From Candidatus Eiseniibacteriota bacterium (GTDB lineage: Bacteria > Eisenbacteria > RBG-16-71-46), in contig JANMQY010000016.1 of the NCBI GenBank assembly GCA_031370785.1, positions 32,001 through 96,000 of the forward strand: 64,000 nt of DNA. Direction: 5' to 3'. The notes beneath the pieces were generated by a model. The model worked only from the letters and a program-made list of their open reading frames with translations. It did not search any database and was not told the DNA's origin. Positions 44,424 through 63,326 of this stretch are shown here, piece after piece (the first letter of the stretch is position 1; every line of letters begins with the position of its first letter). Position numbers and translations under genes: made by a program.

Positions 44424-46199
44424 ATGCGAGCGGCCTTTCGAACCTACTGGCGTGTGCGCCACGCTGCCGCGGCTGCGCGCCTTGCACTGGTCGCGGCCTG
44501 CGCGATCCTGCCCCAGTTCGTCGCATCACGCGCGATGCCGGTGCCTGATCCTTCTGATGGCAGTGCGCGCGCTTCGCAGCCCGCACGTACGCTTTTCGAT
44601 TCGGAAGAAGCTGCCGAAGCGGTGCGCACGGGCGCGCTGCCGGCGTTCGTATTCGTCTCGCGCAAACCGCCGCCTGCGGGGCGCGACGAGATCCCGGGGT
44701 TCGGACCGCACGGAAGGACGCTGGTGGTGGGCGGTCGGCTGATAGTCCGCGAGCGCGACGGTTCGGTGCGCGAGCTGCTGAAGCACGGAGCGTTTTTCGA
44801 CGTGAGCCATCCCGCGGTCTCCCCGGAGGCGAGGCGGGTCGCATTCGCAGCGGTTCGCTCGCGCCGCGACGCGTGGCGTATCTGGGTGGTGAATCTCGAC
44901 GGCAGCGGACTGCGCCGGGTCTCTCCCGAGGCTCGCGCGGGCGCGCGGCTGCCCGAGCTGCCACGCATGCTCCTTCGCTTCGACGATCTGCAACCGTGCT
45001 GGACCGGCGCAGACGAGCTGTGTTTCGCGAGCACGCGCTATCCGCAGCGCAGCGAGTACGGCGATCTACCGGTGACGAATCTGTACGTGCTGCGCCTGAG
45101 CGACGGCGCGCTGCGTCGCGTGACTTCGGAGCGCAACGGCGCGGAGACTCCGTTCTACGACGGCGCGAGCGGAGATCTGCTGTTCTCGCGCTGGTGGTTC
45201 AACCGCTGGCGCGCCTCGGACACGGACCTCTCGGGCGTGACCCGTGATGCCGCGGCTGCGCTGCCCGGGGACAGCGTCAACCTGTGGCAACCCATGCGCC
45301 GCGCGGCGGCCTTCGGCGAGAGCCGGCTCGCGGTCGGCGACGCGAGATCGCGCCTGCGCAGCATGGGCTATCAGCCCACGGTGCTGGCCGACGGTTCGAT
45401 CGCGACCGTATACGCGCGCAACCTCGGACTTTCCCCCCGGCCAGGGCCGACCGGGATCTGGATCTACTCGGACCGTTTCGGCGCTCCGCGGCGCCTTGCC
45501 GGAGCGGCGGTCGGCGAGTCGCCAGAGGATCCGTACACTGCCGCAGCAGGCCTCGCGGCGCCTTCCGCGTGCGCGCCGGCCGGGCTGCCGGACGGACGTC
45601 TGCTGTTCGCGTACGACCCGGGCGCGCGCGGCGACTTCGGGATCTGGGTCGCGAATCCCGACGGCGAGCACATGGCACGGGTGGTCGATGTGCCGGACAT
45701 GCTGGAGCTGGATCCGGCTCCGATCGTGAAGCGCAATGGCGGGCGGGACCCCGCAGCGGAAGGGAACGGGCTCGAGCCGCCGGATGCGCCGTTCGCGAGC
45801 GCACTCGATCTCGAGCATCCGCGGCGCACCTTCACCTTCCACGATCTCGACGTATTCGGCGGGGGAGATGGCGCGGGCGGGCGCGGCGATCCGCCCGCAC
45901 GGATCGCGGGCGCAAGGCTCCGATTCTACGCGGCGCTCGCGCGTCCGTTCGCGGTGGGCGGCGACACCGTGGTGCTGGTGCGCGAGGTCCGGGTTGGCGA
46001 GAGCGGCGAAGTGCTGGCAGCCGGACTTCCCGCCGACGCCCCGATGTTCGAGCAGCTGGTGGATTCGGCCGGGCGCGTGCTGCTCTCGGCGCACGGCCCG
46101 GCCCACGTGCGCGGTTTCAACATAGGCAGTCCGCTCCACGAGACGCGCTGCATCGGGTGCCACGTGGGGCACTCCGCGATTCCGGTCCCCGAGCGCTGA
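44424..46199 (+). CDS. HzsA-related (hydrazine synthase alpha-like) TolB-type beta-propeller with C-terminal CxxCH
   Basis: N-terminal hydrophobic segment; PD40-like repeats (DVSHPAVSPEARRVAF, FASTR, NLY); LPADAPMFEQLVD; RCIGCH. Start uncertain. Confidence 0.7.
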   Translation: MRAAFRTYWRVRHAAAAARLALVAACAILPQFVASRAMPVPDPSDGSARASQPARTLFDSEEAAEAVRTGALPAFVFVSRKPPPAGRDEIPGFGPHGRTLVVGGRLIVRERDGSVRELLKHGAFFDVSHPAVSPEARRVAFAAVRSRRDAWRIWVVNLDGSGLRRVSPEARAGARLPELPRMLLRFDDLQPCWTGADELCFASTRYPQRSEYGDLPVTNLYVLRLSDGALRRVTSERNGAETPFYDGASGDLLFSRWWFNRWRASDTDLSGVTRDAAAALPGDSVNLWQPMRRAAAFGESRLAVGDARSRLRSMGYQPTVLADGSIATVYARNLGLSPRPGPTGIWIYSDRFGAPRRLAGAAVGESPEDPYTAAAGLAAPSACAPAGLPDGRLLFAYDPGARGDFGIWVANPDGEHMARVVDVPDMLELDPAPIVKRNGGRDPAAEGNGLEPPDAPFASALDLEHPRRTFTFHDLDVFGGGDGAGGRGDPPARIAGARLRFYAALARPFAVGGDTVVLVREVRVGESGEVLAAGLPADAPMFEQLVDSAGRVLLSAHGPAHVRGFNIGSPLHETRCIGCHVGHSAIPVPER

Positions 46200-46273: not shown

Positions 46274-47947
46274 CTAGAATGTCTTGTCGAAGATCCACAG
46301 CGCTTCGCTTCCGTCCGGTCGATGGATGATCGAGTCCGGTCTGGCCAGCCCCAGCTCATTCGGGCGCACGATGAAGACTCCGCGGTCGTCGCGCCCGTTG
46401 TTCTCGAGCGCTTCGACTCGGGGCCGGCACAGATCGGCATAGAGGAAGTGCATCTTCCCGTAGCGCACGACCAGGTCCCAGCCATCAACGGATCGTTGGA
46501 TATCGCGTGGCTCCCGGAACCAGCGCCTCGGATCCCACCCGAGCTCGACCAGCGAGGTCGCGAACGGCTCGTTCAGCTCGCGGGTGGTGATGAAGACCGC
46601 ATCGATGCGGTCGAGCCGCGGCTTCAGCCACTTGCAGGCCTCGATCAGATCGACCTGGTATTCGCTCCAGATCTGCGGCCGCCTGTTCCACTCACCGTAG
46701 AACCTGGGCAGATAGCGGAGGTTGATCGCGAAGAACACGAGCGCGAATGCCACGCCGGCACCGCGTGCCACCGCCGGCCCGCGCGCGTAAGCCCATGCCC
46801 ATGCGCGCATCGCGCCGTAAGCCGCGAGCAGGACCAGCGCGCCGATCCCGGGCGAGCTGCGCAGCGCGTGCGCTCCTTCGTAGCGCGCGATCAGATCGCC
46901 TGCCGGGTACGCCGCGACCAGCGCCAGCACGGTACGCGCCGCGAGGTCGTGAGGGGCAGCCCGCACGGCAGCGACGAGCCCGACGATCAACAACGGCAGC
47001 ACGTACCAGTGCAGCATGCCCTGATCTGGCGGCGACATGATGGGGAACACGTCGCCGCGCATGAACAGGAAGCGGGGATCGAAGTGCACGAGCCAGCGTG
47101 CCACGATCTTCACGACGATTTCGCCGAGCGGTGCGCCTCTTTCCCACAGGCGCGTCATCTCGGCGCGACGTGCGGTTCCGGGGTCGGTCAGGTGGCGAAG
47201 CGCGAGCGGCCCGAAGGTGAGCGCGAGACCCGCCGCGAACGCGGCCGCCGCACGCACTCCGGCCGGGGCGCGCAGCACCTCGCGCCAGCGCGACCACGAG
47301 GCGAGCACCATCAGCATCAGCGCGGCCGGCAGAAAGAGGCGAATCGGCCAGTAGCCGTAGCATGCGATTCCGACCGCCGCGCCTCCGAGCGCGGCGCGCC
47401 ACGCGCGTGGCCGGGAGTTCGCGCCGGCCGGCGGAAGGCCGGCCCACAGCAGTGCGGCGGGCGCGAGCAGCCCGAGGAGCGGGCACAGGCTGCCATCGAA
47501 GCCTCCCCAGCGAGAGACCAGCAGCGCCCAGGGGTCGAACGCCATCAGGAGCCCGGCGAGGAGGCCTGCCCACCGCCCAAACAGGCGAGCCCCGACGAAG
47601 TAGACCAGGGGCACGCACAGAATCCCTGCGAACACCCCGGGCAGTCGCGTGGTCCACACATTGAGCCCGCCCAGCGCCTGAAATGGGAGCATGGCGTAGA
47701 AGAGCAGGGTGGTGCGGTTGTCGCCGATGGCGTGCGCGTAGAAGATCGGCCAGCGCGCACCCACCATGTCGTGCCCGGTGCGCAGCATGCAGAACGCGTT
47801 CCACGCGTTGATCGCTTCGTCCTGATTGAGCCCGGGCGGTGAGCTTCCGAAGTGGAACAGGCGCAGAAAGGCGGCGACCAGCGTGATCGCCGCCAGCGCG
47901 AAACCGGTCACGCGTGCCGAGGGCCCGGGTGCGGGGCCCGGCTTCAT
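46274..47947 (-). CDS. GT-C (ArnT/PMT, GT39-like) membrane glycosyltransferase
   Basis: LR...PPGLNQDE after TM1, RLP motif, many TM helices, soluble C-terminal domain; ATGA overlap with osmC. Confidence 0.85.
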   Translation of the reverse strand: MKPGPAPGPSARVTGFALAAITLVAAFLRLFHFGSSPPGLNQDEAINAWNAFCMLRTGHDMVGARWPIFYAHAIGDNRTTLLFYAMLPFQALGGLNVWTTRLPGVFAGILCVPLVYFVGARLFGRWAGLLAGLLMAFDPWALLVSRWGGFDGSLCPLLGLLAPAALLWAGLPPAGANSRPRAWRAALGGAAVGIACYGYWPIRLFLPAALMLMVLASWSRWREVLRAPAGVRAAAAFAAGLALTFGPLALRHLTDPGTARRAEMTRLWERGAPLGEIVVKIVARWLVHFDPRFLFMRGDVFPIMSPPDQGMLHWYVLPLLIVGLVAAVRAAPHDLAARTVLALVAAYPAGDLIARYEGAHALRSSPGIGALVLLAAYGAMRAWAWAYARGPAVARGAGVAFALVFFAINLRYLPRFYGEWNRRPQIWSEYQVDLIEACKWLKPRLDRIDAVFITTRELNEPFATSLVELGWDPRRWFREPRDIQRSVDGWDLVVRYGKMHFLYADLCRPRVEALENNGRDDRGVFIVRPNELGLARPDSIIHRPDGSEALWIFDKTF

Positions 47948-48372
47948 TGCTTGAGAGTGGCCTTCAGCGTGATCGGGGTCGCGGCCAGCGCCTTCGAGAT
48001 CGGGCATCCCTTCTTCGCGCCTTCGGCTTCCGCGGCGAATTTCGCCTCATCGATTCCCGGCACTTCGGCGTCGGTCACGAGCTCGATGCGTGTGATGCCG
48101 AACCCCTCGCCCACCTTTTCCAGGTGCACGTTCGCGACCGTGTGCACGCGCTTCGGGGTGAAACCGGCCTTGGTCAGCCCGGCCGAGAGCGCCATCGAGA
48201 AGCACGCAGCGTGCGCCGCGCCGATCAGCTCCTCGGGATTCGTGCCCTTTCCATCTTCGAAGCGCGACGCGAACGAGTACGGTCCCTCGTAGCCGCCGCG
48301 GCCCAGCTTCACCTTCCCCTGCCCCTCGCGCAGGTTGCCCTTCCACTCCGCTTCCGACTGACGTACCGACAT
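47944..48372 (-). CDS. osmC: OsmC peroxiredoxin
   Basis: YSFASRFE, GTNPEELIGAAHAACFSMAL, AKKGCPISKAL; AGGAGG RBS. Confidence 0.95.
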   Translation of the reverse strand: MSVRQSEAEWKGNLREGQGKVKLGRGGYEGPYSFASRFEDGKGTNPEELIGAAHAACFSMALSAGLTKAGFTPKRVHTVANVHLEKVGEGFGITRIELVTDAEVPGIDEAKFAAEAEGAKKGCPISKALAATPITLKATLKQ

Positions 48373-48636: not shown

Positions 48637-50445
48637 GTGACTCCATCTCAAGAGCCGCTCATTCCGGATTCACAGGCCGATCTCGAGCGCCGAATCGCGC
48701 GCCTTTCGCAGCTGCTCGAGGTGGCGCGCGCCCTGATCGGAGCGCCGGATGCGCGCGCCGCCGCCGCGCGGCTGTGTTACTCAGCGATGGGCGTGCTCGG
48801 TGCGCGCTCGGCGACGCTGTTCGCGGCCGAGGGGCACGGGCGCTACGTCGTCAGGCATTCGAGCCTCGCAGACGTCTCGCCCGGGGAGACGATCCGGCTC
48901 GGTGAGAGCGCTCGCCAATGGATGCTGCGCGAGGGCGCCTTCGCCGTGAGCGGCCCGGCGGCGCTGCGTGGACTGGGCGACACTCGCGAGCGTCTCGCCC
49001 GGCGCGACGCGGCGCTCGGCATGGCGGTCGCGGATGGCGAAGGGCTGCTCGCACTGCTGGTGCTGGGGCCTCGCGTGGTCGGCGAGGGATATGGGGCCGA
49101 GGACGTGGCCCAGCTCGAGGCGCTGGCCACACTCGCCGCTCCCGCACTCGCGGTGCGCGAACGCGAGGCGCGAGCCGCGACCCGTTCTCGGACCGAGCCG
49201 CCGGCCGGCGCGAAAGGCGCCGCCGGGCTCGAAGCGTTGCGCCGTCGCCATCCCGCGCTGCGCGCGCTGGTCGGCGCGAGCGAGCCGATTCGCGAGGCTT
49301 CGCACGATCTGGTCGCCGCGGCCGATCTGCGCTTTCCGGTGCTGATCACCGGCGAGTCGGGCGCCGGCAAGGAGGTGGCGGCCCGCACACTGCACGCGCT
49401 CTCCCGGCGTGCGGCGGGCCCGTTCGAAGTGGTCGACTGCGGGTCGATCCCGGCCGAGCTGATCGAGAGCGAGCTGTTCGGGCACGTGCGCGGGGCGTTC
49501 ACTGGCGCCCACCGCGATCGGCGCGGCGCGTTCGAGATCGCACACCGCGGCACGCTGTTCCTGGATGAGATCGGGGACATGCCGCTCCAGCTCCAGACCC
49601 GGCTGCTCCGCGTGCTGCAGGAGGGGCACATCCGCCGCGTCGGAGACGAGGATCGTATCGAGGTGGACGTGCGCGTGGTGGCGGCCACGCATCGCGATCT
49701 GATCGCCGCGGTCGCCGCTCAGCGTTTCCGCGAGGACCTCTACTACCGGCTCAACGTGTTCAACATCCATCTGCCGCCGCTGCGCGAGCGGCCGGGCGAT
49801 CTTGCGCTGCTGATCGAGCACTTTCTCGCTCGCGGGGCGCACGAGCTGGGCGCGAGCGGATGGACGATGGACCGCGACGTGATGGATGCCCTCGAGACCC
49901 ACGAGTTTCCGGGCAATCTGCGCGAGCTCTCGAACCTGTGCGCGGCCCTGACGGCGCGCGTGCGCGGCGGCGGGCACATCACGCTCGATCACCTGGAGCA
50001 GGTGTGGCGACGCCAGCGCGGCGGCGAGCCTCCGTGGCGCGACACGACGCACGCGGCGGCGGGCGGGCTTGGGGGCTGGGTGCTCGCTCAGCTGCGGGCG
50101 ACGCGCTTCAATCTGATCGCGGCCGAGCGCGAGCTGCGCCGCAAGCGCAAGGGTGGCAGGGCCACTCCCCTCGGCGAGCGCTCGGCGCTGGCCTACTACC
50201 TGAACGGAGAGATCCTGCGCGCGCTGGTCGAGGCGGGCGGAGATCGTGAAGTCGCGGCGCGCGCTCTGGCCGGAGACACGGATCTGGCGGAGCGTGTCGC
50301 GCCGAGGGTGGACAAGGTGTGCGAAGCGCTGCGCGCCGCCGGGTCGAACCGCGACCGCCTCGAGAAGACCTTCGCCAAGCTCCCGGCCGACTACACGAGC
50401 CTGCTCGAGCCGGCGGCGCGCTGCGTCGGGCGCCAGACGAGCTGA
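48637..50445 (+). CDS. sigma54-dependent enhancer-binding activator, GAF-AAA+ with atypical C-terminus
   Basis: [45 protein letters not shown]. Confidence 0.92.
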
Positions 50446-50485: not shown

Positions 50486-50804
50486 GCGTGCGGCCAGAAG
50501 GTGTGGCAGCGAGCGAAGCCCACCCTTTCATGTGCACGCGATTCGATTCTCGACGCGAGTGGCGCTGCAGGTGTGGCGGTCGCGGCGCTCGCAGCGCCGT
50601 AACCGTGCCCGATCCACCCCCACAGCGCCTCTCGCGCCGCTGGATCCGAAGAACAGCAAGCGGCGGGCCACTCGCCGTTCCGCGCGAAACCCGCATGAAT
50701 CGTGGGTCTGCGCGCTTCGAAGCCAGGAACCGACTGCTGAATTTCCGCATTCGATGCGGAATCTCCTGTGGAGCCAAGCTCCCTCTGCTAGTGTTTCGCG
50801 CCTG

Positions 50805-52181
50805 ATGATCCTCTCGAGCCTGCTGGTCGTTGCTCTGGCTGCCGCCGCTCCGGCATCGCGCCCCGCCACGCACCCCGCGCCTTCTCGGGCGGCTGCAGTG
50901 CCGATGGTGGTGCCGTTCATCCAGGACGATTACGCGAGAGCGCTGGCCGATGCGCGCGCGCGCGGCGTCCCCCTGTTCATCGAGGCCTGGGCGCCCTGGT
51001 GACACACCTGTCGCTCGATGAGAGCTTTCGTCTTCACCGACAGGGCGCTCGCCGGGCAAGCCGGGCGGTTCGCCTGGCTGGAGATGGACACCGAGAAGGC
51101 GAAGAACGCGGCGCTCCGCAAGAAGTTCCCGGTCGAAGCGCTGCCCACGTTCTTCATCGTCGATCCGGTGGATGAGAAGGTCGCTCTGCGCTGGGTAGGC
51201 GGCGCGACCGGCCAACAGATGCTGAAGATCCTCGCCGACGGCCGTGCCGCGGTCGCACGCGCGCATGGCCCCGGGCCGCTCGCGGCCGGCCCGTTGCCCG
51301 CGGCGGATCGGGCGTTCTTCGAAGCCGAGCGCGCCTATGGCGAAGCCGACTACGCGAGGGCGGCCCCGGCCTATCGCGCCGCGCTCGCTGCCGCGCCGCC
51401 GGGGTGGGAACACCGAGGGCGCGCGGTCGAATCCCTGCTCTACTCGCTCGGCCAGCTTGACAGCACTGCGGCGGTGGCCTCCCTCGCGCGCGACGAATAC
51501 CCCAGGTTGCGCCACACCTCTTCCGCCGCCAACGTCGCCGTGAGCGGGCTCGATGCCGCGCTCTCGCTGCCGGCCGATCACCCGGAGCGCGCCCGGCTGG
51601 TCGCGACACTCGAAGCCGATGCGCGCGAGGTGGTGAGCGATCGCACCGCGCCGCTCGCCGCGGACGACCGGTCGTCCGTCTACGGCAGCCTGATCGATGC
51701 GCGCGAGGATGCACACGATTCGACCGGAGCGCTGGCGATGAAGCGCGAGTGGTCCGCGTTCCTGGACCGCGAAGCCGCGCGAGCAAAGACCCCGGACGCG
51801 CGTGCGGTCTACGACTCGCACCGCCTCTCCGCCTATCTCGCGCTCGGCGAGCCCGAGCGCGCGGTGCCCATGCTCGAGGCCTCCGAGAAGGCGATGCCCA
51901 ACGACTACAACCCGCCGGCGCGCCTCGCGATCGCGTACAAGGCGATGAAGCGCTGGGACGATGCGCTCGCCGCCTCGGACCGCGCGATGGCAAAGGCTTA
52001 TGGGCCGCGCAAGCTCGGTTTCTACCAGATGCGCGCCGATATCTACGTGGGTCTCCGCGACACCACCGCGGCGAGGCGCACGCTGGAAGAGGCGATCGCG
52101 ATGGCCGACTCGCTTCCGGCCGGGCAGCGCTCGGAGCGCACCATCGCCGCGCTCAGAAAGAAGCTCGAAGGGCTGAAGTAA
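50805..52181 (+). CDS. Exported thioredoxin-fold plus TPR-like protein with in-frame UGA (predicted selenocysteine, UxxC)
   Basis: ORFs 50319-51002 and 51018-52181 share a frame. Reading through TGA 51000-51002 gives FIEAWAPW-U-HTCRSMRAFVF...FPVEALPTFF, a complete thioredoxin fold. Signal peptide MILSSLLVVALAAA. Confidence 0.85.
51007..51044 (+). promoter_or_regulatory. Candidate bacterial SECIS element
   Basis: CCUGUCG/CGACAGG lower stem plus GAUGAG-AGCU-UUCGUC upper stem-loop immediately 3' of the UGA. Confidence 0.65.
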
Positions 52182-52617: not shown

Positions 52618-54396
52618 CTACGGCTGGAGATGGAGCAGGCGGGTCGCAACCAGGATCGGGATGATCACCGCGACGATCGCCTCGCCGGCGATGAAGCCCG
52701 AGGCCAGCGGCGTGACGTGGCGCTCGTAGTTCGCCTTCGCGGCCGCGCGCCAGATCTCGGCGAGCGCGCCGCCCACGAACATGGTGACGATCGCGCTGCC
52801 CGGCACCAGCATGCCGATGCCGATGCCGGTCGGCGACGGCACCCACTTCTTGAACCGGGTTTCCTCGAGCACGGTGAGCCCGATCCCGATCAGCGATCCG
52901 ATGATCAGCGCCGCGATCGCGCCCTTCGGAAGAGCGCTCACGCCCTGTGACAGAATCATCGCGAACCCGACGAAGCGCTGCGAGATCGGCGACTGAAGTC
53001 CGTGCTCACCGCCAATCTTGTACGTGTCGCGCAGCAACGGGTAGACGTAGGACACCGCCAGCGCGCCGACCGGCACCGCCATCAACTGGGCGTAAGTCAG
53101 GAAGCGCGGCGTGCTGCCGATCATATAGCCGGTCTTGTAGTCCTGCATCAGCCCCTCGGACTGGGTCGCGATCGAGCCGGTGACACCGGTCGACACCAGG
53201 TTGGGGCCGATCGCGCCGGGCGCGATCACGCCGAAAATGCCCTGCATCATGTTCGAGAGCGTGCTGATCGGGCCCCAGTTGGTTTCCCCGAGCACGCGGA
53301 TGCCGACCAGCATCAGCGGGATCGAGAAGACGATCGCCGCGATGGTGAGCCAGACCGGCATCCCGAGCGTCAGCTTCTGGACGATCACCAGCGCGATCGC
53401 GCTCGCGATCGAACCCCAGATCACCCACTTGAGCGGGAAATCACCGGTGCTGATCTTCGCACCCGCCAGGTTCTGGAAGGTCGCCACCAGCGATCTCCAG
53501 CGCAGCGCCATCGCAGTCAGCCCTCCGGCCACCAGTATTCCGACCGCGGGCCACATGATCCAGAACAGCATCTCGCGTCGCACCATGTGCCCGACCCATC
53601 CCTGATGCAGCAGCAGCGGCGGCGCGATGACCCACGCCGCGATCGTGCCGATCAGCATGCTGGTGTTGATGCGCATGCCGACCAGCATCCCCGAGCCGAT
53701 GTTGAGCAGGCTCCAGCTGAGCCCGACGTTCATGATCGCGCCGGTGGCGCCGAGCTTCAGCATCTCCGGCACGCGGAAGAACACCTCGCCCAGCACCCGG
53801 GTGTCCTCGCGGATGACCATGAGAATCCCGGAAAACACCCCGCCGAGCGCGAGCGAGCGCGCCGCGCCGCGCGATTCGCTGCCCCGCGAGTCGAGCACGA
53901 TCAGGGTTTCCCCGGCCGCGACGCCGTCGGCGAACGTGAGCTTCTCGTCCACCACGAAGTGCTGGCGCATCGGGACCGAGAGCAGCACCCCGAGGAATCC
54001 CGCCGCGGTCAGCCACAGGAAGGCCGTGAAGGGCGGCAGCGTCTGAGTGAAATGCGCGCTCGGTTCCGCGCGCAGAAGATCGAAGGCGGCCATGATCACG
54101 CAAAGGAACGCGGTCTGCCCCGCCGCCGTACCGGCGGTCTGGACGATGTTGTTCTCCCAGCGATTGAAGGTCTTCGAGAACAGTCCGAGCGCGAGGTAGC
54201 CGAAGAACGCCGAGACCACCGAGATGTTCGGGCCGAACCCGAGCTTGAGGACGATGTACGGGTAGGAGGCGCCGATCACCGCGGCGACCAGCATCGCGGT
54301 GATCACGGCGCGCGGCGTGAACTCGCGCACGCCTTCGGGCTTCAAAGGATATGCGTGAGGATCCGGCACGGGCGCGGCCTGCTGCGGAATCGCCAT
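52618..54396 (-). CDS. OPT/YSL-family oligopeptide transporter
   Basis: EFTPRA, LKLG, ENNIVQT, GET, MQDYKTG; many TM helices. Confidence 0.9.
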   Translation of the reverse strand: MAIPQQAAPVPDPHAYPLKPEGVREFTPRAVITAMLVAAVIGASYPYIVLKLGFGPNISVVSAFFGYLALGLFSKTFNRWENNIVQTAGTAAGQTAFLCVIMAAFDLLRAEPSAHFTQTLPPFTAFLWLTAAGFLGVLLSVPMRQHFVVDEKLTFADGVAAGETLIVLDSRGSESRGAARSLALGGVFSGILMVIREDTRVLGEVFFRVPEMLKLGATGAIMNVGLSWSLLNIGSGMLVGMRINTSMLIGTIAAWVIAPPLLLHQGWVGHMVRREMLFWIMWPAVGILVAGGLTAMALRWRSLVATFQNLAGAKISTGDFPLKWVIWGSIASAIALVIVQKLTLGMPVWLTIAAIVFSIPLMLVGIRVLGETNWGPISTLSNMMQGIFGVIAPGAIGPNLVSTGVTGSIATQSEGLMQDYKTGYMIGSTPRFLTYAQLMAVPVGALAVSYVYPLLRDTYKIGGEHGLQSPISQRFVGFAMILSQGVSALPKGAIAALIIGSLIGIGLTVLEETRFKKWVPSPTGIGIGMLVPGSAIVTMFVGGALAEIWRAAAKANYERHVTPLASGFIAGEAIVAVIIPILVATRLLHLQP

Positions 54397-54540
54397 GGTC
54401 GCGCAGACTAGCAGCAACCCATGGCCGGATGCAGCCTGGAATTCAGGCGGTCGCGGTCGTGGTGAAATCCGATACAGTCCAATTCGAGCAGGTGATCGGA
54501 GCCACGCGCGGGCGCGCCCGCATCCTCCGGAGGAATGGCT

Positions 54541-54807: not shown

Positions 54808-55521
54808 CTAGTGCAGCCCCGCCACGTGCGTGTCGAGCGAGCCCCAGATCTGCTTCAGCCGCTGGTCGCGCCCGCATCCCAGCCGGTAAGTCTGATAGCG
54901 CACGGGATCCTTGCGCCAGAAGTCCTGGTGGTACTCCTCGGCCGGATAGAACGTGGTGGCGGCGACGATCTGGGTGACGATCGGCTTCCTGAAGCGCCCC
55001 GAAGCCTCGATCTTCTTCCTCGACTCCTCGGCGAGACGGTGCTGCTTCTCGTCGCGATAGAAGATCGCGGAGCGGTACTGATTCCCGTGATCGCAGAACT
55101 GCCCGTCGGCCTGGGTGGGATCCACGTTGTGCCAGAAGATCTCGAGCAGGCGTTCGTACGAGATCTTCTTAGGGTCGTAGACGATGTTGACCGATTCGGC
55201 GTGTCCGGTGACTCCCGAGCTCACCTCTTCGTACGTCGGATTCAGCTTCTGCCCGCCGGTGTATCCGGAGGTCACCGAGAGCACTCCGTCACGCTGCTCG
55301 AAGGCAGTCTCCTCGCACCAGAAGCACCCACCCGCGAATGTGGCCTCGGCGAGTCCCGCGCCAGGCGCGGAGGTGGTCTCGCCCGGAGCGCCGGCGCGGG
55401 ACGCGGCAGCAGCGGATGCGCTGGACTTGCCCTTCGCGCCGTCGGCGGCGCAGGAGGTCGTGAGAATCGCAGCGCCCAGCAGGGCGGCGAGTGCGAGCGT
55501 CGTCGATCGGATCGACTTCAT
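54808..55521 (-). CDS. msrA: Peptide-methionine (S)-S-oxide reductase, with lipoprotein-type signal
   Basis: AGGCFWC, NPTYEEV, GHAE, GQFCD.G.QYRS, AEEYHQ; N-terminus MKSIR...LTTSC. Confidence 0.93.
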   Translation of the reverse strand: MKSIRSTTLALAALLGAAILTTSCAADGAKGKSSASAAAASRAGAPGETTSAPGAGLAEATFAGGCFWCEETAFEQRDGVLSVTSGYTGGQKLNPTYEEVSSGVTGHAESVNIVYDPKKISYERLLEIFWHNVDPTQADGQFCDHGNQYRSAIFYRDEKQHRLAEESRKKIEASGRFRKPIVTQIVAATTFYPAEEYHQDFWRKDPVRYQTYRLGCGRDQRLKQIWGSLDTHVAGLH

Positions 55522-56065: not shown

Positions 56066-56338
56066 TCAGGCGGCGCGCGCCGGTCCCACCGAATCGGCCA
56101 GCACCGAAGCCTGATTGTTCGACACCTCGAAGAACCCGCCAGTCACCTGCCACACCTCTTCGGTCCCGCCGCGGCGACGCACGGTGAGCCGGCCTTCGGC
56201 GAGCGCGGTCACCAGCGCGGCATGGTGCGCGAGCACGCCCAGGTAGCCTTCGCTGCCGGGCACCTGCACGTACTCGACCGGGCCTTCGAACACGGTGCGC
56301 TCGGGCGTCAGGATCGAAAGCTGGAATTCGGCGGCCAT
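56066..56338 (-). CDS. atpC: ATP synthase F1 epsilon (short, N-terminal domain only)
   Basis: ILTPE, VPGSEGYLGVLAHHAA, GGFFEV, VLAD. Confidence 0.93.
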   Translation of the reverse strand: MAAEFQLSILTPERTVFEGPVEYVQVPGSEGYLGVLAHHAALVTALAEGRLTVRRRGGTEEVWQVTGGFFEVSNNQASVLADSVGPARAA

Positions 56339-56339
56339 G

Positions 56340-57809
<1,470 letters not shown>

Positions 57810-58682
57810 CTACCTGAGTGCCTCGGCGCCGCCCACGATCTCGGCGATTTCCTTGGTGATGGCTGCCTGCCGCATGCGATTGCGCAACAGGGTGAGACTG
57901 TCCACCAGCTCGCCGGCGTTCTTGCGCGCCGCACCCATCGCGACCATGCGCGCGGAGTGCTCGGCGGCAAGCGCATCGGCGAGCGCGGCGAACATCTTGG
58001 CTCCGGCGTAGCGCAGGAGCAGCTGCTCGAAGATCGCTTCCGGGTTGGGCTCGAAGATGGTGCCGCGATCCTGCGGCGGCGGAGCCGCGGCATCGCCCGC
58101 CACCGCGGAGCCGCCTACCGGCAGGAACACCTCGCTCACGATCCGCCGGTTGAGCGCCGAGATGAACTGCGTGTACAGCACTTCGACGCGATCCACCGCA
58201 CCGGACATGAACAGCTCGATCAGATCGCCAGTGAGCTTCTTCGCGAAATCGAGATTGGCCTCCGCCGGCAGATCGACATGGGTGGCGAGCACCGGATAGC
58301 GACGACGCTTGAAGTACTCGCGGCCCTTGCGGCCCACCAGCACCAGCTTGAGCGTGCCCGGCGCCGCGGCGCGCAGTCGGGTCTCGGCCTCGCGCATCAG
58401 GTTCGTGTTGTATGCGCCGCACAGGCCGCGGTCGGCGGTCACCAGCACCAGCGCCGTCACCTTCGCCTCGCGCGCGCGGAACAATGGGCTCTCGAGCTCG
58501 CTCGCCGCGCCGGCCAGCTTGCCGAGCATCTCGGTGAGCTTGGCGGCGTAGGGCCGCGCGGCGACGGCGCGCGCCTGAGCGCGACGCAGCTTGGAGGCAG
58601 CCACCATCTCCATGGCCTTGGTGATCTGCTGCGTGCTCTTGGTCGAGCGGATGCGCCGCCTGAGGTCCTTCAGGGATGCCAT
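57810..58682 (-). CDS. atpG: ATP synthase F1 gamma
   Basis: QITKAMEMVAASK, DRGLCG, RQAAITKEIAEIVGG. Confidence 0.99.
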   Translation of the reverse strand: MASLKDLRRRIRSTKSTQQITKAMEMVAASKLRRAQARAVAARPYAAKLTEMLGKLAGAASELESPLFRAREAKVTALVLVTADRGLCGAYNTNLMREAETRLRAAAPGTLKLVLVGRKGREYFKRRRYPVLATHVDLPAEANLDFAKKLTGDLIELFMSGAVDRVEVLYTQFISALNRRIVSEVFLPVGGSAVAGDAAAPPPQDRGTIFEPNPEAIFEQLLLRYAGAKMFAALADALAAEHSARMVAMGAARKNAGELVDSLTLLRNRMRQAAITKEIAEIVGGAEALR

Positions 58683-58685
58683 GGC

Positions 58686-60194
<1,509 letters not shown>

Positions 60195-60239
60195 GCTGTC
60201 AGCCCCGAATTCTATGAGAGGTGATGGAAGGCAGCGCCA

Positions 60240-60785
60240 TCAGACGCTGACCTCGTGTAGACGCCTTGAAATCGTGTCGAGCAGGGTGCGCACCGAGCGG
60301 TCGATCACGCGATCGCCGATACGCACCAGCGCCCCGCCGATCAAGGCGGGATCGGTCTCGCTGGTGAGCCGGATCGTGGTGCCGGTGCGGCGCTCCAGTC
60401 CGGCCTGAAGCTTCTCGGTCTCGGCCGCGGTCAGCGGCACCGCGCTGACCAGGTGGGCGCGACGCACGCCCTGCGCCTTCTCGACGATCGCTTCGAACTC
60501 ATCCACGATGGTCGGGAACTCGCCCAGACGCTTCTTGCGCAGCAGCAGGTCGACAAACACGATCGCGGTACGCAGCACATGCTTCTCGAGCCCGGTCCGC
60601 AGCGCCTTGCGCTTGTCCTCGAGGCGCGTCTCGGGCGAAGCAAGGAAGCGCCCGACCCTGCCATCGTGACGGAGCACCTCGCGCAGACCCTGCAGATCCT
60701 CGAGGGCGCGCACCGTCTCGCCGCGCTTCTCGGTGATCATGAACAGCGCCCGGGCGTAACGCGCCGCGACAGTGGTGTCCTTCAT
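60240..60785 (-). CDS. atpH: ATP synthase delta
   Basis: VAARYARALF, SAVPL, DPALIGG...DRS. Confidence 0.96.
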   Translation of the reverse strand: MKDTTVAARYARALFMITEKRGETVRALEDLQGLREVLRHDGRVGRFLASPETRLEDKRKALRTGLEKHVLRTAIVFVDLLLRKKRLGEFPTIVDEFEAIVEKAQGVRRAHLVSAVPLTAAETEKLQAGLERRTGTTIRLTSETDPALIGGALVRIGDRVIDRSVRTLLDTISRRLHEVSV

Positions 60786-61270
60786 TTCTTCGCTCCGACT
60801 TCGTCCACGAACTCGCCGACCAGCTTGCGCTGGGTCGGGTCGTCGATCTTCTGCCGCAGGATCTTCTCGGCGGTCAGGATCGAAAGCGTCACCACCTGAT
60901 CCTTGAACTGCTCCTTGGCCTTCTCTCGCTCGCGCAGGATCTCGTCCTCGGCGCGCTGCACCCGCTGCGCGGCCTCGGCCTGCGCCTGTGCCTTGATCTC
61001 GGCCGCCGCCTTCTGCCCGTCTTCGACCGCGGCCAGGATGCGCTGGCGGGCTTCGGCGTCTGCGCCGCGCAGCTTCTGCTCGTAAGCAACCTTCAGGTCG
61101 TTGGCCTCTGCCTTCGCGCGGTCCGCCGCCTTGAAGTCACCGGCAATCTTCTCGCGCCGCGCCTCGAGCATGCCGCTGAGCGGGCCCCACGCGTACTTGC
61201 GCAGGATCCACAGCATCAGCAGGAAGCCGATGATCTGGGTGAGAACTTGCCGGATGTCGATCAGGTTCAT
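60782..61270 (-). CDS. atpF: ATP synthase F0 b
   Basis: N-terminal TM with ..AWGP, then a long coiled coil; operon position. Confidence 0.95.
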   Translation of the reverse strand: MNLIDIRQVLTQIIGFLLMLWILRKYAWGPLSGMLEARREKIAGDFKAADRAKAEANDLKVAYEQKLRGADAEARQRILAAVEDGQKAAAEIKAQAQAEAAQRVQRAEDEILREREKAKEQFKDQVVTLSILTAEKILRQKIDDPTQRKLVGEFVDEVGAKK

Positions 61271-61331
61271 GCACGCTCCTTGACGGCGCCCCGTCCGAAC
61301 CGGCCAGGGGACCGCGCGTCGAGCAAGGTCT

Positions 61332-61562
61332 CTAGATCTTGCTCGACAGCAGGAACATGGTCACGAACGCGTAGATCGTGAGTGCTTCGGCCAGCGCCGC
61401 GATGATGATCATCGCGAGCTGAATCTTCGCGGTCGCTTCCGGCTGACGGCCGATCGCCTGCATGGCGCCCTGACCGATCAGACCCAGACCGATGCCCGAG
61501 CCGACGGCCGCGATGCCGATGCCGATGGGAAGGCCGAGTGATAATGCCGCGTGGAAATCCAT
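61332..61562 (-). CDS. atpE: ATP synthase F0 c (H+-type signature)
   Basis: GxGxGxG, RQPE loop, AEALTIY. Confidence 0.97.
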   Translation of the reverse strand: MDFHAALSLGLPIGIGIAAVGSGIGLGLIGQGAMQAIGRQPEATAKIQLAMIIIAALAEALTIYAFVTMFLLSSKI

Positions 61563-61566
61563 TGAG

Positions 61567-62970
61567 TCATCCCTCCTGTACTTGTGGCGAGTGGGCGTGG
61601 TGCGCTTCCTCTTCGTGCTCGTGATCGTCGTGCGGCAGCATGAGAAGGAAGTAGATGGTGCTGAGAACGGTGAACACCAGGGCCTGCAGGGTGCTGGAGA
61701 GCAGCGCGAGGAACAGGAACGGCAGGTGCAGCGGCAGACCGAACGGCAGGTGCGTGAACGACAGCATGGTCACGCCAAGGGTCGCAAAGGCGACCAGCAG
61801 CATGTCCTCGCCGAAGATGTTGCCGAAGAGTCGGCACGAGAGCGAGATCGGCTTGGCGAGCTCGCCGAGCAGGTGGATCGGAAAGATCAGCGGCGCCACG
61901 ATCCACGAGGTCACATCGCGCGGGTTGCCGAGCATGTGGTCGAAGTATCCGACCAGGCCCAGCTCCCTGAACCCGGTAAACTGCACGTAGACGAACACCG
62001 TCAGCGCGAGCGCGACGGTGACGTTCAGGTTCGAGGTCGGCGAGTGCATGAACGGGATCAGCCCGAACAGGTTCATCGCCAGGATGTAGATGAACAGTGT
62101 GCCGAGGAATGGCACGTAGCGCGGGCCGAATTTCGGGCCGAGGATCCCGACGATGAAGTCGTGGAGCGCCTCGACCAGAGCCTCGACCGCGTTCTGCAGC
62201 CGACCTGGATACATCTTCGCGTTGCGACTGGCGAGGAAGGCGAGGAAGCACAGCAGCAGCGCGATGAACAGCGAGTAGACCAGCACTTCGTAGTGCTCGA
62301 GGAAATGCGCCCAGGTCGCGTGCGGAAACGCTCCGGCCAGGATTCCGATCACGTTCGGGAACTCTTGCGGACCTTCGCTCTTCGCCTCGCCGTGCTCGGC
62401 GCCTTCGGCCGCGTGGCTCTCGGCCGCGGTGGTCTCGGCAGCGTGGCCTTCGGCCGCGCCGGTCTCGCTCGCGGCCAGCGCCGCGCTCCCGGCGTCGCGC
62501 GCGACACCGCTGCGTGGCAGCGCACCGAGCGCGCCCCATGCGAGTGCCACGGTCGCCACCACTACCAGCGCCGCGCGCCACGGGCGGCGCGTGATCGCGG
62601 CCCACGCGCGCGATTCGAGCAGCAGCCGCGCGGCGGCCTTGAGCACGATCACGGTGAATGGAAGGAAGAAGCCGGCCATCAGCCAGTGCGGCGCGAGCCG
62701 GGTCAGCAGCAGCGGCCCCGCGGCGAAGAGCGCGAGCATGCCGAGCAGCGCGAGCCCGATGCGGCGCAGCGAGGCGGGCCGGGTGCGCTTAAGACCGGTG
62801 AGCGTGACGATCAGACGCTCGATCAGCGCGAGGTTCACGAGCGACCACAGCGCGCCGGCCCCGAACGCCAGGCCGGTAAGCGGCGAGGCGTAGGTCGCAA
62901 TCATCAGCGATGCGACCGCGCCCACCCAGAGCGTGGTCGTGCGGACGCGTGCGAGAAACTCGAGGCCCAT
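61567..62970 (-). CDS. atpB: ATP synthase F0 a, N-terminally fused to an AtpI-like membrane domain
   Basis: PGRLQN, SPTSNLN, KPISLSCRLFGN, LQALVF in the C-terminal half; four-TM AtpI-like N-terminal region in the same frame. Confidence 0.9.
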   Translation of the reverse strand: MGLEFLARVRTTTLWVGAVASLMIATYASPLTGLAFGAGALWSLVNLALIERLIVTLTGLKRTRPASLRRIGLALLGMLALFAAGPLLLTRLAPHWLMAGFFLPFTVIVLKAAARLLLESRAWAAITRRPWRAALVVVATVALAWGALGALPRSGVARDAGSAALAASETGAAEGHAAETTAAESHAAEGAEHGEAKSEGPQEFPNVIGILAGAFPHATWAHFLEHYEVLVYSLFIALLLCFLAFLASRNAKMYPGRLQNAVEALVEALHDFIVGILGPKFGPRYVPFLGTLFIYILAMNLFGLIPFMHSPTSNLNVTVALALTVFVYVQFTGFRELGLVGYFDHMLGNPRDVTSWIVAPLIFPIHLLGELAKPISLSCRLFGNIFGEDMLLVAFATLGVTMLSFTHLPFGLPLHLPFLFLALLSSTLQALVFTVLSTIYFLLMLPHDDHEHEEEAHHAHSPQVQEG

Positions 62971-62996
62971 ATCCGCGTGCGGCGCCCGACGTGAGG

Positions 62997-63251
62997 TCAG
63001 CGGCGCTTTCCGCGCTCCTCTTCTGCCATGTAGCGGCGGTAGATCAGGAAGGTTTCACGTCCCGCGGCGAAGAAGCCCAGGATCAGCCCGAGGATGAGGA
63101 ACCATGGGGAGGACTTCAGTCGTCGATCCAGCAGCCAGCCCAATCCGCCGCCGAGCAGGGGCGCCACGATCAGCAGAGTAGGAATGGCGAGCAGCATACC
63201 GGCTGACCTGAGCCCGGAGAACTTCGACTCGTTCCGCGGTGGTTCCGGCAT
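62997..63251 (-). CDS. AtpZ/AtpI-family (ATPase gene 1) small membrane protein
   Basis: GLGWLLDR...PWFLILGLILG motif; first gene of the atp operon. Confidence 0.88.
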   Translation of the reverse strand: MPEPPRNESKFSGLRSAGMLLAIPTLLIVAPLLGGGLGWLLDRRLKSSPWFLILGLILGFFAAGRETFLIYRRYMAEEERGKRR

Positions 63252-63326
63252 CACGTCCGCCCCGGTGAAACTTTTCACAAACACGGGGCAACCGTCGAGA
63301 TTTCAACGGCTGCCGAAGGCGGAGGC

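Follow-up and report, generated by a model that had tools for sequence, protein, structure and literature searches.

Does a TGA codon that interrupts a long reading frame, at the active site of a thioredoxin-like protein, encode selenocysteine (Sec), and if so, which RNA element directs the recoding? This question is raised by a gene in a 64,000-nucleotide stretch of a Candidatus Eiseniibacteriota genome (contig JANMQY010000016.1, positions 32,001 to 96,000; hereinafter the window, in which all positions are counted). The gene and all its features described below are on the forward strand. It spans positions 50805..52181, running from an ATG at 50805 through a single in-frame TGA at 51000-51002 (codon 66) to a TAA at 52179-52181, and reading the TGA as Sec (U) yields exactly the 458 amino acids that a preceding sequence-only reading of this DNA had given. 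The TGA takes the place, as stated there, of the first Cys in a thioredoxin motif, W-A-P-W-U-H-T-C (residues 62-69), in which C69 is the sole Cys of the protein. The principal claim of that reading, an exported UxxC thioredoxin protein with tetratricopeptide repeats (TPR) that is cut by gene callers, is strongly supported by the present analysis; the hairpin that it designated as the Sec insertion sequence (SECIS) is not, and a more distal hairpin is the better candidate. Taken as a whole, comparative evidence makes it probable that codon 66 is read as Sec, that this distal hairpin is the signal, and that the product has a redox role outside the cytoplasm.

Standard gene callers indeed truncate the gene. 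The open reading frame call covers 51018-52181 and begins at the ATG of Met72 (51018..51020), a false start, and the protein collection contains exactly this C-terminal piece of 387 amino acids. The truncation is not limited to the window: 80 of the 120 best protein matches are fragments of 377-401 amino acids similar to the 387-residue form (for example, GenBank HEY2953911.1 and HEY3216400.1), which start with M-R/K/Q-A in 78 cases and with MFT in the other two, so that for this gene, widespread in Ca. Eisenbacteria and some Acidobacteriota, most of these entries lack both signal peptide and active site. The full-length homologs with Cys (435-495 amino acids) align across 92-99% of the query, and in the homologous DNA the reading frame is open on both sides of the single TGA.

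The identity of residue 66 can be assessed from the alternation of TGA and Cys codons among homologs. In 149 distinct alleles, codon 66 is TGA in 85, TGC in 53, TGT in 11 and nothing else, a ratio that is not a family frequency because a part of the set comes from a contig scan whose pattern had Cys at the site, so that Cys alleles are over-sampled. The set combines 110 loci from 140 match rows in the phylum (C-terminal fragments, some short or weak matches and the genome G073 were left out) with 58 loci from that wider scan; all 168 align at codon 66, and deduplication leaves 149, including one Cys row (L175) that is a distant protein with a different motif. From a scan of metagenomes with C-terminal search patterns, the best 80 of 260 relatives were retained; 69 of them cover the codon and add 63 new distinct alleles, 62 with TGA and one with TGT. 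Accordingly, the homologs carry TGA in some cases and Cys in others (85/64 of 149; 62/1 of 63), and there is no TAA, TAG or TGG at this position in either set. A quick maximum-likelihood tree computed for 128 proteins of nearly full length, which is unrooted and so does not give the direction of change, requires a minimum of 15 Sec/Cys changes, and well-supported branches force 10 of them. On these comparative grounds, UGA66 is almost certainly a Sec codon.

The gene is matched in 109 of the 206 genomes of the phylum, and genomes of one order and of some sister families each have a single copy of the main family (f1 82/88, f2 10/10; f7 0/15, f18 0/41); the records of relatives come from Ca. 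Eisenbacteria, Acidobacteriota and Myxococcota. A paralogous subfamily in five phylum genomes (L166, L168, L169, L170 and L174), with 34-38% identity and the motif W-U-Y-S-C, has TGA in 5/5, and no member of it is detected in the host genome at E 1e-10. Three Sec alleles in records titled Acidobacteriota (L044, L045 and L047) occur amid the Cys alleles of that group and retain the intact distal hairpin described below; one record titled Acidiferrales (L046) shares its allele with a genome of the window's own family. An assembled contig from another run is identical to the window over 50996-51858, the codon being just 4 bases from the end of that contig, and none of the 40 contig matches listed differs at 51000-51002. 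A 7 kb contig over the gene from an RNA library, about 90% identical, probably derives from DNA and gives no sign of transcription.

The host genome (100% complete by markers, 68% G+C) encodes the machinery for Sec synthesis and insertion that the sequence-only reading proposed to look for: selA, selB, selD and tRNA-Sec (selC) are all found above curated cut-offs, with an in-frame TGA in selD itself and the tRNA-Sec gene (anticodon UCA) adjacent to it. None of the situations in which that reading was to be abandoned applies; the machinery is present and the relatives are not all Cys. The genetic code is not reassigned because TGA ends 945 of 1466 long reading frames and is the main stop codon of the genome. 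Across the phylum, selA is present in 185 of 206 genomes (116 of the 121 of high quality), and Sec use appears to be nearly universal.

Two other interpretations of the TGA have to be considered at this point. That it is a nonsense mutation, the mark of a pseudogene or an assembly error can be practically dismissed. An isolated in-frame TGA does occur elsewhere in this genome, in an oligoendopeptidase F gene, but here the same TGA is present in 85/149 and 62/63 distinct alleles with intact frames and is accompanied by a Sec-specific RNA structure, and the contig of the other run agrees, although the codon is so close to its end; family-wide conservation refutes this possibility. The other interpretation is that translation is programmed to stop at the UGA, or that Cys or Trp is inserted there, the products being a 65-residue peptide and a 387-residue protein starting at Met72, or else a Cys protein made by leaky read-through. 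The presence of the 387-residue form in databases and the conservation of Met72 in 79/80 Sec alleles seem to speak for a restart, but Met72 is also found in 58/58 Cys alleles and, being equally conserved there, is to be regarded as structural; its AUG is moreover buried in a predicted hairpin (H1, see below), and a promoter-like motif discussed further on favours an upstream start. A split at the UGA would divide the thioredoxin fold in the active site, tRNA-Sec is the only tRNA with a UCA anticodon in the host genome, and the two other stop codons and TGG are never seen at codon 66. Altogether, a stop, a restart or another amino acid at this position is very improbable, leaving Sec as the preferred reading.

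If UGA66 is decoded by SelB with Sec-tRNA, a recoding signal should be sought downstream, and the element that tracks Sec is a short hairpin (H2) at 51059..51079, that is, +57..+77 counted from the UGA. It has a stem of 8-9 bp and a three-nucleotide GUU loop (51068-51070), which starts with G-U and is closed by a G-C pair, and a folding energy of -15.5 kcal/mol (z -4.0). For the analysis of hairpins, the 149 alleles were reduced by the five paralogs, five divergent rows and L175 to 138 (80 Sec and 58 Cys). Seven pairs of the H2 stem at +58..+76 are formed in 80/80 Sec alleles and the eighth in 71/80, compared with all eight in 3/58 Cys alleles; the GUU loop is present in 78/80 Sec alleles. The metagenomic alleles, which were held out, behave in the same way, with at least seven of the eight pairs in 62/62 Sec alleles, the GUU loop in 61 of the 62, and only four pairs in the lone Cys allele. 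In ensemble folds, the probability of H2 exceeds 0.5 in 141/142 Sec vs 3/59 Cys alleles, and H2 is the only helix called in the RNAalifold consensus.

The association with Sec is also seen on the tree: H2 is intact in 72/72 Sec and 2/46 Cys rows represented there (n=118), and in 10 independent pairs it goes with Sec in 8-9 and never in the reverse direction (sign test p 0.004-0.008). Two of the three Cys alleles with an intact H2 are in the tree, L051 with an unresolved placement and L032 as sister to a Sec row, where it looks like a recent Sec/Cys switch. Overall, H2 is 98.5% paired, and two of its pairs have changed on both sides (G-C to A-U, 6; A-U to G-C, 2, the window included). Synonymous codons within the hairpin are frozen in Sec alleles: Gly at codon +21 after the UGA is GGA or GGG in 79/79 vs a background with 60% GGC, Ala+20 is GCC in 78/80 (background 40%), and Val+24 is GTC in 78/78 (background 42%). 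The amino acid itself is affected at +21, with Gly in 79/80 Sec vs 17/58 Cys alleles. All five paralogs, despite their low identity, fold both H1 and H2, the latter 3 nucleotides closer to the TGA, so that its loop lies 62 nucleotides after the UGA instead of 65.

Bacterial SECIS elements have been described as having an N1-G[G/U]N-N2 loop pattern and a distance of 16-37 nucleotides between the UGA and the apical loop (PMC13188914). In its loop, stem length and folding energy, H2 agrees with the published description, and its loop resembles those that follow the TGA codons of selD and of the UshA-like, SelW-like and YHS-like genes in the host genome. It shares with the canonical type (the bSECISearch consensus, exemplified by E. 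coli fdhF) an intragenic location 3' of the UGA, the G-U loop and the 8-9 bp stem, and differs in that its loop is 65 nucleotides from the UGA, compared with 16-37 in the consensus, and lies behind a second hairpin of 45 nucleotides. A search of Rfam produced only four matches with E 1.6-6.9, all far below gathering scores. The covariation with Sec makes it likely that H2, rather than a hairpin within 37 nucleotides of the UGA, acts as the recoding signal, with SelB presumably binding there.

The hairpin put forward by the sequence-only reading, at 51007-51044, does adopt the stated fold as a separate fragment (-14.1 kcal/mol, z -2.8; the loop starts at +21 and its second base is G) but is a minor structure in its natural context, with a pair probability of 0.19, and its role as the SECIS is not borne out. 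It dominates the ensemble in 0/142 Sec alleles, and in the covariation test that had been suggested for it, it barely exceeds column shuffles (28/500 for pairing, 59/500 for covariation). Its stem is 72.3% paired across Sec alleles, the lower part in only 61.6% of cells, and three upper pairs are a consequence of the protein sequence because they are kept in 58/58 Cys alleles just as well. Together with this hairpin, two others were set aside by the same tests of conservation, shuffling and ensemble folding, namely one in a shifted proximal position, with a C-U-U-C loop, and a G-G-C triloop close to the UGA (+21..+23), which is attractive when just the first 60 nucleotides downstream are considered. 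Generally, no hairpin within the 16-37 nucleotide range exceeds a probability of 0.5 in any of the 142 Sec alleles, and the pairing in this region is not Sec-specific.

A selenoprotein gene with an ordinary proximal SECIS, either the 51007-51044 hairpin or the G-G-C triloop, and with H2 as an accessory brake or stability element for UGA read-through, is nevertheless worth weighing. The isolated 51007-51044 fragment does fit the consensus geometry, other selenoprotein-like genes of this genome have proximal G-G-C or G-U-C loops, and G is found at both +21 and +22 in 72/80 Sec vs 35/58 Cys alleles. Against this, apart from the ensemble and shuffle results, no more than 31/80 alleles form the two pairs that close the triloop, and at +21 the allele of the window carries A. 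In seven of the held-out Sec alleles, C at +21 is matched by a compensating base at +45, as expected for the pairing in H1 but not for a loop G, and the five paralogs retain H2 although the sequence around the proximal stem diverges. A proximal SECIS is therefore unlikely, and H2 is retained here as the candidate signal.

How a signal so far downstream could reach the decoding site is suggested by the sequence between the UGA and H2. In the minimum-energy fold of the region, positions 51013..51057 (+11..+55) form H1, the proposed spacer hairpin, which ends two bases 5' of H2; the two together have -37.2 kcal/mol (z -3.4). Ensemble folding gives H1 in 96-104 of 142 Sec alleles, compared with 3-4 of 59 Cys alleles; four pairs of its core helix have changed on both sides. 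Arg at codon +7 is encoded by AGG in 46/69 and by CGC in 0/69 Sec alleles (background 4% and 55%, respectively), a bias that H1 would explain by the pairing of +19 with +47 and of +21 with +45. The seven held-out alleles with C at +21 swap G-C for C-G at +21/+45, and the paralogs form H1 from a different sequence. The 45-nucleotide spacer would thus fold into H1 from +11, just beyond the ribosome, leaving the base of H2 about 11-12 unpaired nucleotides from the UGA, which matches the 11 nucleotides at which the upper stem of the E. coli SECIS is placed (PMC8659212). That H1 loops out the spacer and brings H2 to an E. coli-like distance is a somewhat favoured model, less well supported than the role of H2.

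Several observations weigh against these proposals. The H2 loop, at 65 nucleotides, is about twice as far from the UGA as the limit of the 16-37 rule, and the E. coli upper stem is far closer than that. Double-sided changes are seen in only 2/8 pairs of H2, four of which are invariant. H1 is imperfect, with 77.6% pairing of its core helix, does not appear in the RNAalifold consensus and is not significant in the independent pairs (median p 0.375); besides, folding predictions take no account of the ribosome. The host selB ends at a contig edge before the SECIS-binding C-terminal domain, which is found in 20/20 relatives. Finally, many Cys alleles occur in selA-positive genomes, and with selA in 185/206 genomes, its presence or absence cannot discriminate.

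Whether this locus exemplifies a second bacterial SECIS architecture, with the SelB-binding hairpin about 60 nucleotides downstream and brought to the ribosome by a hairpin 5' of it in which the spacer is looped out, appears to be evenly balanced. If it does, the codons beside Sec would be freed from the constraint of the SelB site, and the family, with >140 Sec alleles and repeated natural switches from Sec to Cys in which the element is lost, would be a clean natural test. Bacterial SECIS predictors assume a spacing that H2 does not respect, and binding of SelB to H2 would call for a revision of the rule that the SECIS abuts the UGA. Of the catalogued bacterial selenoprotein genes, 12.6% have been reported to lack a canonical SECIS (PMC13326102), and such genes are also noted in PMC13188914; the proposed architecture would explain some of them, would hide whole families from SECIS-based searches, and would allow non-canonical cases to be tested with a defined two-hairpin model. 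The design of recombinant selenoproteins could then place the SelB site away from the active-site codons.

The protein itself has three parts, in agreement with the sequence-only reading, which placed a signal peptide and the beginning of a thioredoxin domain before the TGA and the ALPT loop with TPR-like helices after it. The first 20 or so residues (50805..50864) are a probable signal peptide judging from hydropathy, which reaches 2.75 over residues 1-11, with no later 19-residue window above 0.97. An N-terminal peak of at least 1.8 is found in 38/39 full-length homologs, and a pattern search detects no twin-arginine translocation (Tat) motif among the 39; the window allele has no basic residue in the n-region. 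An AlphaFold model computed from a 120-sequence alignment (mean predicted local distance difference test score, pLDDT, 92.2; predicted template-modelling score 0.87) shows a disordered N-terminus (pLDDT <50 for residues 1-21), a thioredoxin domain at about 34-153 (50904..51263), with a strand at 57-62 followed by the predicted active-site helix at 67-76, and a TPR-like alpha-solenoid of 16 helices at 166-457 (51300..52175).

Pfam identifies the second part as Thioredoxin_7 (PF13899 at residues 40-121, E 2.6e-9, above the cut-off); TPR matches at 345-444 are below cut-offs. The locus is not listed in a Pfam thioredoxin search of the host genome. Structural comparison with VIA-align places this domain close to 2lst (Z 15.7, root-mean-square deviation (rmsd) 2.6, 127 residues aligned), 3f9u (15.3, 2.6, 122), DsbD-gamma 1vrs (13.9, 2.2, 111) and DsbH 2ju5 (13.4, 2.3, 114), so that Pfam, the model and the structural matches agree on a thioredoxin fold with U-x-x-C at the start of the active-site helix. 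Thioredoxin folds carry a cis-proline opposite such a site, and Pro114 of the ALPT loop (51144..51146), invariant in 120/120 aligned proteins, is the candidate for it. The best structural matches of the solenoid are TPR superhelices (LGN 4wng, Z 17.4, rmsd 5.1, 285 aligned), and the 120-protein alignment shows invariant residues in this part, D287, D288, R333, D337, H339, R340, P370, R373 and Y399-G-P-R402. A sequence search of solved structures yields only 2kuc and weak MamA matches, and a search of the Atlas only uncharacterised Thioredoxin_7/TPR clusters.

Among characterized proteins, the best analogy is the chaperedoxin CnoX/YbbN, in which an N-terminal thioredoxin domain is fused to a C-terminal TPR domain (PMC8129009). 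The order of domains is the same, Foldseek matches YbbN 3qou (E 6.8e-5), and several homologs are named 'thioredoxin-like negative regulator of GroEL' by JGI. The protein of the window, however, has 16 helices vs 10 and 458 vs 282 residues, a Thioredoxin_7-type domain and Sec, and, like 38/39 full-length homologs, a hydrophobic N-terminus that points to export, whereas CnoX is cytoplasmic and acts with GroEL; the whole proteins do not superimpose (template-modelling score 0.19/0.30, rmsd 25.1), another point that counts against the functional reading given here. Size, superposition and export signal thus set it apart from CnoX proper. The DsbD-gamma and DsbH domains are the closest solved folds of the N-terminal domain (1vrs, 2ju5 and 3f9u), and there is a weak match to a DsbD model; unlike DsbD, the protein has neither the membrane nor the alpha domain, and it differs from both in the appended solenoid and the U-H-T-C site.

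The signal peptide very likely directs the chain to the periplasm, where the U-H-T-C site might then serve as a thiol-disulfide reductase or isomerase for clients held in the TPR groove, re-reduced by DsbD, which is present in the host genome with its alpha, beta and gamma domains, in the manner of an envelope version of CnoX; this assignment, built on analogy, is tentative and falls a little short of an even chance. The gene neighbourhoods point to no client, the largest neighbour cluster being found at 18 of 148 loci (flanks of 1.5-3 kb; the 22 largest clusters were identified by eye), which is also unfavourable to this idea. A possible, if rather doubtful, alternative concerns function alone and is compatible with Sec decoding, H2 and H1 as outlined above: the selenoprotein could be a dedicated maturation factor for a single envelope partner, akin to the cytochrome c maturation proteins CcmG, CcmH and CcmI, or an oxidase, or a metal or ligand binder. 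The invariant charged motifs of the TPR part exceed the needs of a bare scaffold, the closest thioredoxin folds include an exported domain related to cytochrome c biogenesis (3f9u), and there is a single main-family copy per genome in one order and some sister families. No gene for cytochrome maturation or another partner recurs among the 22 largest neighbour clusters, though, and free exchange of Sec and Cys at the N-terminal position of the motif is typical of a redox nucleophile. The periplasmic reductase or isomerase is kept as the working assignment.

As far as Table 1 of a 2026 catalogue (PMC13188914) and NCBIfam go, the thioredoxin-TPR selenoprotein belongs to a well-known class, with an architecture that has not been catalogued. 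With catalogued thioredoxin-fold selenoproteins, it shares the fold, Sec at the first position of CxxC, the existence of Cys homologs and matches to PF00085, PF13098 and PF13899, and adds to them the signal peptide and a 290-residue TPR solenoid. That table contains 119 families, several of which are UxxC types with a thioredoxin fold, and no row names a TPR domain; its sole Trx7 row (Trx7/PDZ, NF041199) is CxxU with a PDZ domain, unlike the UxxC-TPR arrangement here. All 11 NCBIfam matches are below cut-off (for example, TsoB 26.2 vs 805), and neither 'TPR' nor 'tetratricopeptide' is found in the available text portions of PMC13326102, PMC12013277 and bioRxiv 2022.07.06.499078. Within a mostly open-access literature, no paper was found that deals with the family, with Eisenbacteria selenoproteins or with a distal bacterial SECIS composed of two hairpins; in BSepDB, members could be listed simply as thioredoxins. 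Correct annotation would add an exported thioredoxin-TPR architecture to the bacterial selenoproteome, in itself a solid but unsurprising addition.

The start region offers additional evidence on the 5' end of the gene. An extended -10-like promoter motif, TGnTAnnnT, is located at 50786..50794, with its hexamer 10 nucleotides 5' of the ATG at 50805 and 7 nucleotides 5' of an extra in-frame CTG at 50802. Homologous loci are alike: a TAnnnT hexamer occurs 6-7 nucleotides 5' of an in-frame ATG or GTG in 91/135, compared with 1/135 in each of two control ranges. This suggests that in most homologs of the lineage, translation begins at the upstream start on a leaderless or near-leaderless mRNA. A scan of the locus for two-hexamer sigma-70 promoters found none, and the one terminator-like site from the same scan is at chance level.

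The host genome contains several other genes with in-frame TGA codons. One (G000:C9:33472, forward strand; L272) has the TGA in P-C-G-U, followed by a G-G-C loop hairpin at about +26, and is most similar to the UshA-like (seleno)protein NF041198 (186 bits on a partial translation, cut-off 275). A SelW/Rdx-family gene with C-x-x-U (G000:C144:282, reverse strand; L273) is above the TIGR02174 cut-off and has a proximal G-U-C loop hairpin, and a probably exported YHS-like protein with the TGA in G-F-C-U-A-G-C (G000:C62:24900, forward strand; L274) has a proximal G-G-C loop hairpin and no NCBIfam match. A lipoprotein-like redoxin with T-U-S-F-C (G000:C25:10921, forward strand; L275) comes near NF053656 (88 bits, cut-off 100); the first 45 nucleotides contain no clear canonical hairpin, and it may have another non-canonical SECIS. 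A second candidate thioredoxin-TPR selenoprotein, of about 195 residues with M-U-G-G-C and a proximal hairpin (G000:C94:11645, reverse strand; L276), is unrelated to the first: it combines Thioredoxin_2/7 with TPR_16, has no evident signal peptide and shows no significant similarity to the protein of the window. The oligoendopeptidase F gene (G000:C62:43463, forward strand; L277) is broken by one in-frame TGA at a position that we take to be Trp in the family, probably a nonsense change or an assembly error.

Near the gene in the window are Cys forms of two redox genes, OsmC (47944-48369) and MsrA (54811-55500), both on the reverse strand, a sigma-54 activator-like gene (48637-50445, forward) and an OPT transporter gene (52618-54417, reverse), none of which belongs to the largest neighbour clusters of the family. 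Further away, 44424-46199 (forward) encodes an exported-looking protein of 591 residues that ends in a C-x-x-C-H heme motif and weakly matches hydrazine synthase alpha (33 bits, cut-off 800), and an F-type ATP synthase operon, recognised from translations, occupies 56066-63284 on the reverse strand.

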